From the NCBI RefSeq assembly GCF_003334355.1, contig NZ_QOWP01000002.1: a stretch of DNA of 64,000 nucleotides; one strand, given 5' to 3'. The DNA comes from Escherichia coli (lineage in GTDB: Bacteria > Pseudomonadota > Gammaproteobacteria > Enterobacterales > Enterobacteriaceae). Position 1 is the first letter of the stretch, and each line of letters starts with the position of its first letter. The notes beneath the pieces are model-generated. The model was not told the DNA's origin and did not search any database. It saw only the letters and a list, made by a program, of their open reading frames with translations. Shown here piece after piece: positions 10,070-10,455 of this stretch. The position numbers were made by a program, and so were the translations under genes.

Positions 10070-10455
10070 TGGGCCTGATATGGGGATTATTCAGCGTCAT
10101 TATTGCCTCAGTTGCGCAATTAAGCCTGGGTTTTGCGGCAAGTCATCTGCCGCCGATGACGCACTTATGGGATTTTATCGCGGCTCTGTTAGCTTTTGGC
10201 CTGGATGCCCGGATACTGTTACTCGGGCTGCTGGGTTATCTGCTTTCCGTTTTTTGTTGGTATAAAACGCTTCATAAACTTGCGCTAAGCAAAGCCTATG
10301 CCTTGCTCAGTATGAGTTATGTGCTGGTATGGATTGCTTCAATGGTACTTCCCGGCTGGGAAGGGACTTTTTCGCTGAAAGCACTACTGGGAGTAGCCTG
10401 TATTATGAGCGGGTTGATGCTGATTTTCCTGCCCATGACAAAACAACGTTACTGA
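10069..10455 (+). CDS. arnF: Undecaprenyl-phosphate-Ara4N flippase subunit (SMR-like)
   Basis: 128 aa from [17 protein letters not shown]...; ATG overlaps the arnE TAA; the longer track ORF 9787..10455 is an out-of-context upstream extension. Confidence 0.9.

Follow-up and report, generated by a model that had tools for sequence, protein, structure and literature searches.

Tail-to-tail overlap of arnF and pmrD at the end of the Escherichia coli arn operon

What happens to transcription when a signalling gene and the operon that it ultimately switches on end inside one another? PmrD is a PhoP-activated connector protein that protects phosphorylated PmrA, also called BasR (PMC3140997), and the circuit runs from PhoP through pmrD to phosphorylated PmrA and on to the arn genes (PMC3140997, PMC2565834). 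We analyzed the end of the arn operon within a 64,000-nt stretch of Escherichia coli DNA (contig NZ_QOWP01000002.1; hereafter the window). A sequence-only reading had claimed that arnF and pmrD overlap at their stop codons, that no intergenic DNA is left for a terminator, and that each transcript must run antisense into its partner, with mutual interference between the PmrA-activated operon and the PhoP-activated gene as a possible result. The account that we consider probable is that the overlap is real and species-wide, that both transcripts have short antisense 3′ extensions, and that the locus is of the excludon type, with a regulatory effect that is probably small and putative.

Geometry of the junction

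The arnF gene occupies positions 10069–10455 on the plus strand; it is the terminal gene of the arn operon and encodes a 128-aa subunit of the undecaprenyl-phosphate-L-Ara4N flippase. Its ATG at 10069 overlaps the arnE stop codon by 1 nt, and a 222-aa ORF beginning at GTG 9787 was rejected as arnF because it is merely the arnF frame remaining open further upstream. The pmrD gene lies on the minus strand at 10449–10715, starts at ATG 10715 and encodes 88 aa (MEWLVKK...). The two coding sequences share 7 nt at 10449–10455 (TTACTGA), with both stop codons inside the shared segment. Reading along the plus strand, arnF ends in CGT TAC TGA, its stop codon at 10453–10455; along the minus strand, pmrD ends in ACT CAG TAA, its stop codon being the reverse complement of 10449–10451. 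RefSeq annotates the same geometry (arnF at 2570–2956 and pmrD at 2950–3216 of locus L001, from a strain with 100% identity), and positions 10000–10900 of the window are 100% identical to E. coli strain 214-4. The sequence and the RefSeq annotation together bear out the gene ends and the 7-nt overlap that had been claimed.

An overlap this short could in principle come from a wrong stop codon or reading frame, with no true overlap at all, and the ends of short ORFs in general are sometimes mis-called; nothing else favors such an artefact, and we give it a negligible chance. Stop positions are set by the sequence itself, not by gene callers. Both proteins match curated NCBIfam equivalog models across nearly their full length, ArnF scoring 138.7 bits against NF002816 (cut-off 99) and PmrD scoring 175.4 bits against NF011994 (cut-off 96), and the structures solved as PDB 2JSO and 4HN7 are of a protein identical to the 88-aa PmrD; the gene identities proposed earlier are thereby confirmed. 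In E. albertii, the sole change within the overlap is a T>C substitution at the equivalent of 10449, which keeps both frames and is silent in both, converting arnF CGT to CGC and the pmrD stop from TAA to TAG. The overlap is genuine and not an annotation artefact.

The match to NF002816 stops at ArnF residue 121 of 128, the final ~7 residues forming a lineage-specific tail, and the NF011994 profile spans PmrD residues 1–85, with KTQ and the stop codon extending beyond it. The overlapping codons belong to lineage-specific C-terminal tails that neither family profile covers. The arrangement is also locally unusual, because the remaining three convergent gene pairs within the surrounding 50 kb are separated by 38, 58 and 66 nt, and this pair by none.

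Transcription units and termination around the junction

As had been claimed, the arnBCADTEF operon (3105–10455, plus strand) consists of seven genes ending in arnF. Its gene junctions abut or overlap. Operon coordinates were transferred from an annotated identical strain (window position = 50001 minus the L019 coordinate), which places arnB at 3105–4244, arnC at 4248–5216, arnA at 5216–7198 and arnD at 7195–8085; arnT (8085–9737) and arnE (9734–10069) are given by their ORFs together with annotation, and all lie on the plus strand. Further along the window, coordinate transfer from the identical strain also places elaD (~19890–21114), which the annotation treats as a pseudogene carrying a frameshift and an internal stop codon, and an IS66-family element (~22339–24764) that comprises the ISEc43 transposase, tnpB and one more ORF and adjoins yfbM. 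About 100 nt upstream of arnB lies a direct repeat, CTTAAGGTTAAGTTAAT (2990–3006, plus strand), that resembles a PmrA/BasR box and has 1 mismatch to YTTAAK-N5-YTTAAK; the repeat is partly palindromic, and its minus strand matches the box too. Its position and the literature suggest that this putative box is the PmrA-dependent input to the plus-strand unit.

The opposing unit is driven from the 109-nt menE–pmrD spacer (10716–10824), which holds the pmrD promoter on the minus strand. No PmrA box (YTTAAK-N5-YTTAAK, at up to 2 mismatches) was found on this promoter side in 10716–10830, whereas the equivalent Salmonella spacer, our positive control, contains ATTAATGTTAGGTTAAT (L012 2899–2915) with 2 mismatches to the same consensus. 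A by-eye search of the E. coli pmrD promoter against the PhoP box consensus gave no convincing match. The consensus scan also found no terminator-like site on the minus strand in the 109 nt that separate menE from pmrD, so that menFDHBCE transcription may enter pmrD, and then arnF in antisense, independently of PhoP. Within the 5′ end of pmrD there is, in addition, a sigma-70-like site on the plus strand (TTGACC-16-TATCCT; 10699–10726) that is directed into menE.

Because the coding sequences themselves overlap, an overlap of at least 7 nt between the two transcripts is unavoidable, and the earlier claim that no intergenic room exists for a terminator stands. A consensus scan of the relevant strand after each stop codon, arnF or pmrD, found no canonical intrinsic terminator in E. 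coli, S. enterica or C. freundii, and no G+C-rich hairpin with a flanking A-run and T-run lies at or near 10449–10455, nor at the corresponding junctions of Salmonella and C. freundii. Since no such terminator lies between or soon after the stop codons, RNA polymerase is expected to enter the partner gene in antisense. The further claim, that each transcript must do so, thus holds as a consequence of the overlapping coding sequences.

A relaxed hairpin-plus-U search, used beyond the consensus scan, yielded weak candidates only, located 85–190 nt into the partner gene. Polymerase arriving from the arn side would meet a candidate hairpin/U-run at +85 nt (10504–10535, plus strand; ΔG −7.2) and another at +178 nt (10598–10623, plus strand; ΔG −9.3), whose U-run is offset. 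From the pmrD side, the candidate at +187 nt is a hairpin at 10315–10272 on the minus strand (ΔG −16), followed by AGCGUUUUAU. Two observations led us to reject it as a conserved terminator: the coding of a conserved 11-residue ArnF motif determines the stem, and the U-run that follows it, present in Escherichia and Salmonella, is absent in Citrobacter. The DNA that encodes the motif (10272–10315) forms a palindrome with an 11-bp stem, because its Ser-Lys-Ala codons are the reverse complement of its Ala-Leu-Leu codons, and the corresponding antisense hairpin has a ΔG of about −16 to −39 kcal/mol across genera.

The arn read-through RNA would extend over 10456–10715 on the plus strand, untranslated and antisense to all of pmrD, and the read-through RNA from pmrD, and possibly from the men operon as well, would extend over 10262–10448 on the minus strand, antisense to the 3′ half of arnF. 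The first 60 nt of the former (10456–10515) contain 21 C and 12 G (C/G 1.75); in the latter, the C/G ratio is 1.4–1.7 directly past the stop codon and 2.2 at 10368–10309 (20 C and 9 G). Being untranslated and richer in C than in G, these RNAs would resemble Rho substrates, a C excess that is typical of nearly any antisense RNA and not specific to rut sites. Rho has an established role in ending antisense transcription. Neither RNA folds with unusual stability (z of +0.95 and −1.73), the plus-strand RNA folding no better than shuffled sequence (z of +0.95), and an Rfam scan of 2500–13000 found no known RNA family.

These elements lead to the following mechanistic account. The pmrD gene fits between menE and the last arn gene, practically without a spacer on the arn side, and the 7-nt overlap itself stems from the short, lineage-specific extensions that both proteins carry at their C termini. 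Polymerase leaving arnF would transcribe pmrD in antisense, and polymerase leaving pmrD would transcribe arnF in antisense. Each read-through would most likely continue until release by Rho or until a weak hairpin/U-run 85–190 nt in, and the antisense travel into the partner is probably ~100–300 nt.

Published transcript data document the overlap at the level of RNA. ExcludonFinder (NAR 2025) lists arnF–pmrD among 165 convergent E. coli excludons, a set called in no fewer than half of the 58 MG1655 transcriptomes surveyed, and cites it to illustrate excludons whose partners act in the same pathway (PMC12288877). Its rule defines an excludon by the overlap of coverage-defined transcript ends (PMC12288877); because coverage overlap is near-automatic when coding sequences overlap, the call follows almost automatically here and documents co-expression, not interference. 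Among the duplexes listed from p19 capture, made on cultures without PhoP or PmrA induction, no dsRNA lies at pmrD or arnF coordinates (PMC7373196). Duplexes are listed in the 3′ end of menE and in arnD in MG1655 (PMC7373196), those in menE being 21–22 nt long and lying at its extreme 3′ end (10829–10850) and ~80 nt further in (~10904–10925). Because these duplexes map in menE, plus-strand RNA antisense to menE exists; its source is either the site at 10699–10726 or arn read-through across the whole of pmrD. Two 3′-end or full-length transcript datasets, Adams 2021 Term-seq and SMRT-Cappable-seq, have no pmrD or arnF entries, and a full-text literature search found no mechanistic study of antisense or convergent transcription at pmrD.

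Conservation of the arrangement

Of 5426 complete E. coli genomes, 5252 carry the 81-nt junction at full length, ungapped and with at least 93.8% identity, and the 7-nt overlap recurs in all three E. coli strains that we sampled, the most divergent among them. The overlap is fixed species-wide in E. coli. To follow the junction in other species, we retrieved their loci through PmrD alignment and measured the distance from stop to stop. This distance is −7 nt in E. albertii and −6 nt in S. enterica and its subspecies diarizonae, where the shared segment is a palindromic TCATGA in a different phase; it is +2 nt in C. freundii and +3, +3, +3 and +9 nt in genomes of the C. amalonaticus group. The zero-spacer, tail-to-tail arrangement is thus common to Escherichia, Salmonella and Citrobacter, and the exact overlap drifts. 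The C-terminal tails of both ArnF and PmrD vary between species.

pmrD is reported to have been acquired horizontally. A distant member of the PmrD family sits in an unrelated context, between genes for an MFS transporter and a Fer4_19 protein, and this agrees with the published observation that the chromosomal neighborhood of pmrD is common to Citrobacter, Salmonella and Escherichia but differs in Klebsiella (PMC3140997). In two GTDB species representatives, Escherichia sp. MOD1-EC7003 and 'E. coli' SCPM-O-B-8794, pmrD is intact although the greater part of the arn operon has been lost.

Several individual loci carry further rearrangements. What is left of the operon in the first of these two Escherichia loci, L003 (3264–3600), is just an arnT fragment fused to arnF codons 39–128, and in L004 (3254–3320) only the final 22 arnF codons; the L004 junction is shortened, apparently by a small deletion, and PmrD there has a new 90-aa tail. 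Judging from ORF order, size and strand alone, ORFs like those of ais, nudI and yfaZ seem to come next. In the type strain of S. enterica subsp. arizonae (L010 3282–3851), a frameshift in arnF leaves 114 aa that end in an aberrant sequence, and the arnE match is limited to residues 1–58; arnT and pmrD are intact, and the flippase genes resemble pseudogenes. The metagenome-assembled genome HRGM_Genome_0066, labelled Citrobacter sp., has two such loci: a Citrobacter-type arnF/pmrD pair on a 235-kb contig, and an E. coli-type pmrD/arnF pair on a 3.1-kb contig with 94–98% amino-acid identity to the window. The 3.1-kb contig is probably mis-binned E. coli DNA.

Regulatory readings and significance

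We compared the junction with known systems that share its geometry or its logic. Like other convergent excludons, a concept from Listeria that was extended to an E. coli excludome (PMC12288877), arnF and pmrD are neighbors that converge tail to tail from opposite strands, and their transcripts overlap at the 3′ ends by at least 7 nt; the locus is a convergent excludon-type transcript overlap and is already catalogued as such. In a classical excludon, however, a long UTR of one gene covers the other, inverse expression has been demonstrated and the two genes are on under exclusive conditions; here, the coding sequences themselves overlap, and the pathway logic predicts co-induction, since low Mg2+ turns on pmrD and, through PmrA, arn (PMC3140997). 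SEnd-seq work by Ju et al. in 2019 reportedly described convergent E. coli genes with overlapping bidirectional intrinsic terminators between them. Those pairs also have very short convergent junctions that meet transcription from both sides, but a bidirectional terminator is a G+C-rich palindrome with A- and T-runs; the arnF/pmrD junction has none, nor any intergenic DNA to hold one.

Two further comparisons come from the PmrA regulon. Salmonella PmrR is reported to inhibit LpxT. The pmrR–basS (pmrB) pair resembles arnF–pmrD in that a small gene lies opposite a regulon gene and overlaps its 3′ end; it is found in the same excludon table (PMC12288877) and has a 25-bp overlap (PMC8004244), although its genes and its locus are different. 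Repression of pmrD through the PmrA box in Salmonella (PMC3140997, PMC2565834) has the same logical output that cis-acting feedback would have, since active PmrA lowers pmrD. There, PmrA binds the pmrD promoter and a box-like repeat is present; in E. coli, the spacer has no box, and the overlap would have to act in cis through transcription.

Could the overlap itself regulate pmrD? If so, PmrA-activated arn transcription would read across pmrD, and possibly across its promoter, and lower pmrD expression through polymerase collision, promoter occlusion or RNase III cleavage of the duplex; a negative feedback would be built in on the connector and, conversely, read-through from pmrD or men would trim arnE and arnF expression. 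We consider this unlikely, even though transcript overlap is obligatory, the abutting geometry is kept across three genera, and the MG1655 dsRNA data place plus-strand RNA even past pmrD, at the 3′ end of menE. The lack of a PmrA box in the E. coli spacer, where Salmonella has one, also speaks for it. Mutating the PmrA box of the Salmonella pmrD promoter reportedly abolished repression (Kato et al. 2003), which counts against this reading. PmrA represses pmrD in Salmonella, where pmrD adjoins arn, and not in Klebsiella, where it lies elsewhere (PMC2565834, PMC3140997), as cis-antisense feedback would have it, but the authors ascribe this difference to the PmrA box, and they state that E. coli does not have this feedback loop (PMC3140997). 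The junction itself behaves as drift would predict, its gap length and frame varying from −7 and −6 to +2, +3 and +9 nt, with no sequence or structure of the overlap conserved beyond coding needs. Two Escherichia lineages retain an intact pmrD despite the loss of the arn operon, and none of the listed p19 duplexes, which come from non-inducing cultures, lies in pmrD or arnF.

A neutral origin fares better, and we give it a little less than an even chance: the overlap would simply have arisen as stop codons drifted at a junction that has no spacer, and embedded weak terminators or prompt Rho action would halt both transcripts within ~100–200 nt, so that, at low native expression, no measurable interaction occurs. 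As such packing implies, relatives differ in their gap or overlap, and neither protein has a constant C-terminal tail; weak hairpin/U-run candidates are available at +85 and +178 nt on the arn side and at +187 nt on the pmrD side, and the dsRNA and 3′-end datasets that we searched have no pmrD or arnF entries. Those candidates are nonetheless poor terminators, in which the stem is weak or the U-run is displaced from it, and the pmrD-side U-run is missing in Citrobacter. The RNA-seq coverage of the pair, moreover, overlaps in at least half of 58 transcriptomes (PMC12288877), which counts against this reading.

Our preferred account, of a real overlap with short antisense extensions, has a regulatory consequence that is probably small, and the mutual interference suggested earlier remains speculative. 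If there is any effect, PmrA-driven arn transcription would dampen pmrD, and read-through from pmrD or men would dampen the distal arn genes. Because the circuit should have both units on together in low Mg2+, not under mutually exclusive conditions, any interference is predicted to act as a delayed negative feedback of arn on pmrD and not as an either/or switch. A bolder version of this idea is that, in E. coli, arn read-through over pmrD is the missing negative-feedback arm of the PhoP–PmrD–PmrA circuit, wired by transcription instead of by a binding site. We hold it to be improbable; if true, it could explain why the zero-spacer convergent geometry has been retained in Escherichia, Salmonella and Citrobacter.

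The arnF/pmrD overlap is real but ordinary; it was already annotated and catalogued as an excludon, and it is not a discovery. Editing the 3′ end of arnF or of pmrD alters the partner gene, which calls for caution in strain construction and tagging, and RNA-seq reads at the junction must be counted with equal care. The wider interest lies in the circuit, a textbook case of connector-mediated signalling that controls resistance to polymyxin and colistin by way of lipid A modification with L-Ara4N. Should arn feed back on pmrD in cis, the circuit would contain a hidden feedback arm that affects induction dynamics and heteroresistance, and the reading of pmrD and arn deletion and tagging constructs would be affected as well.
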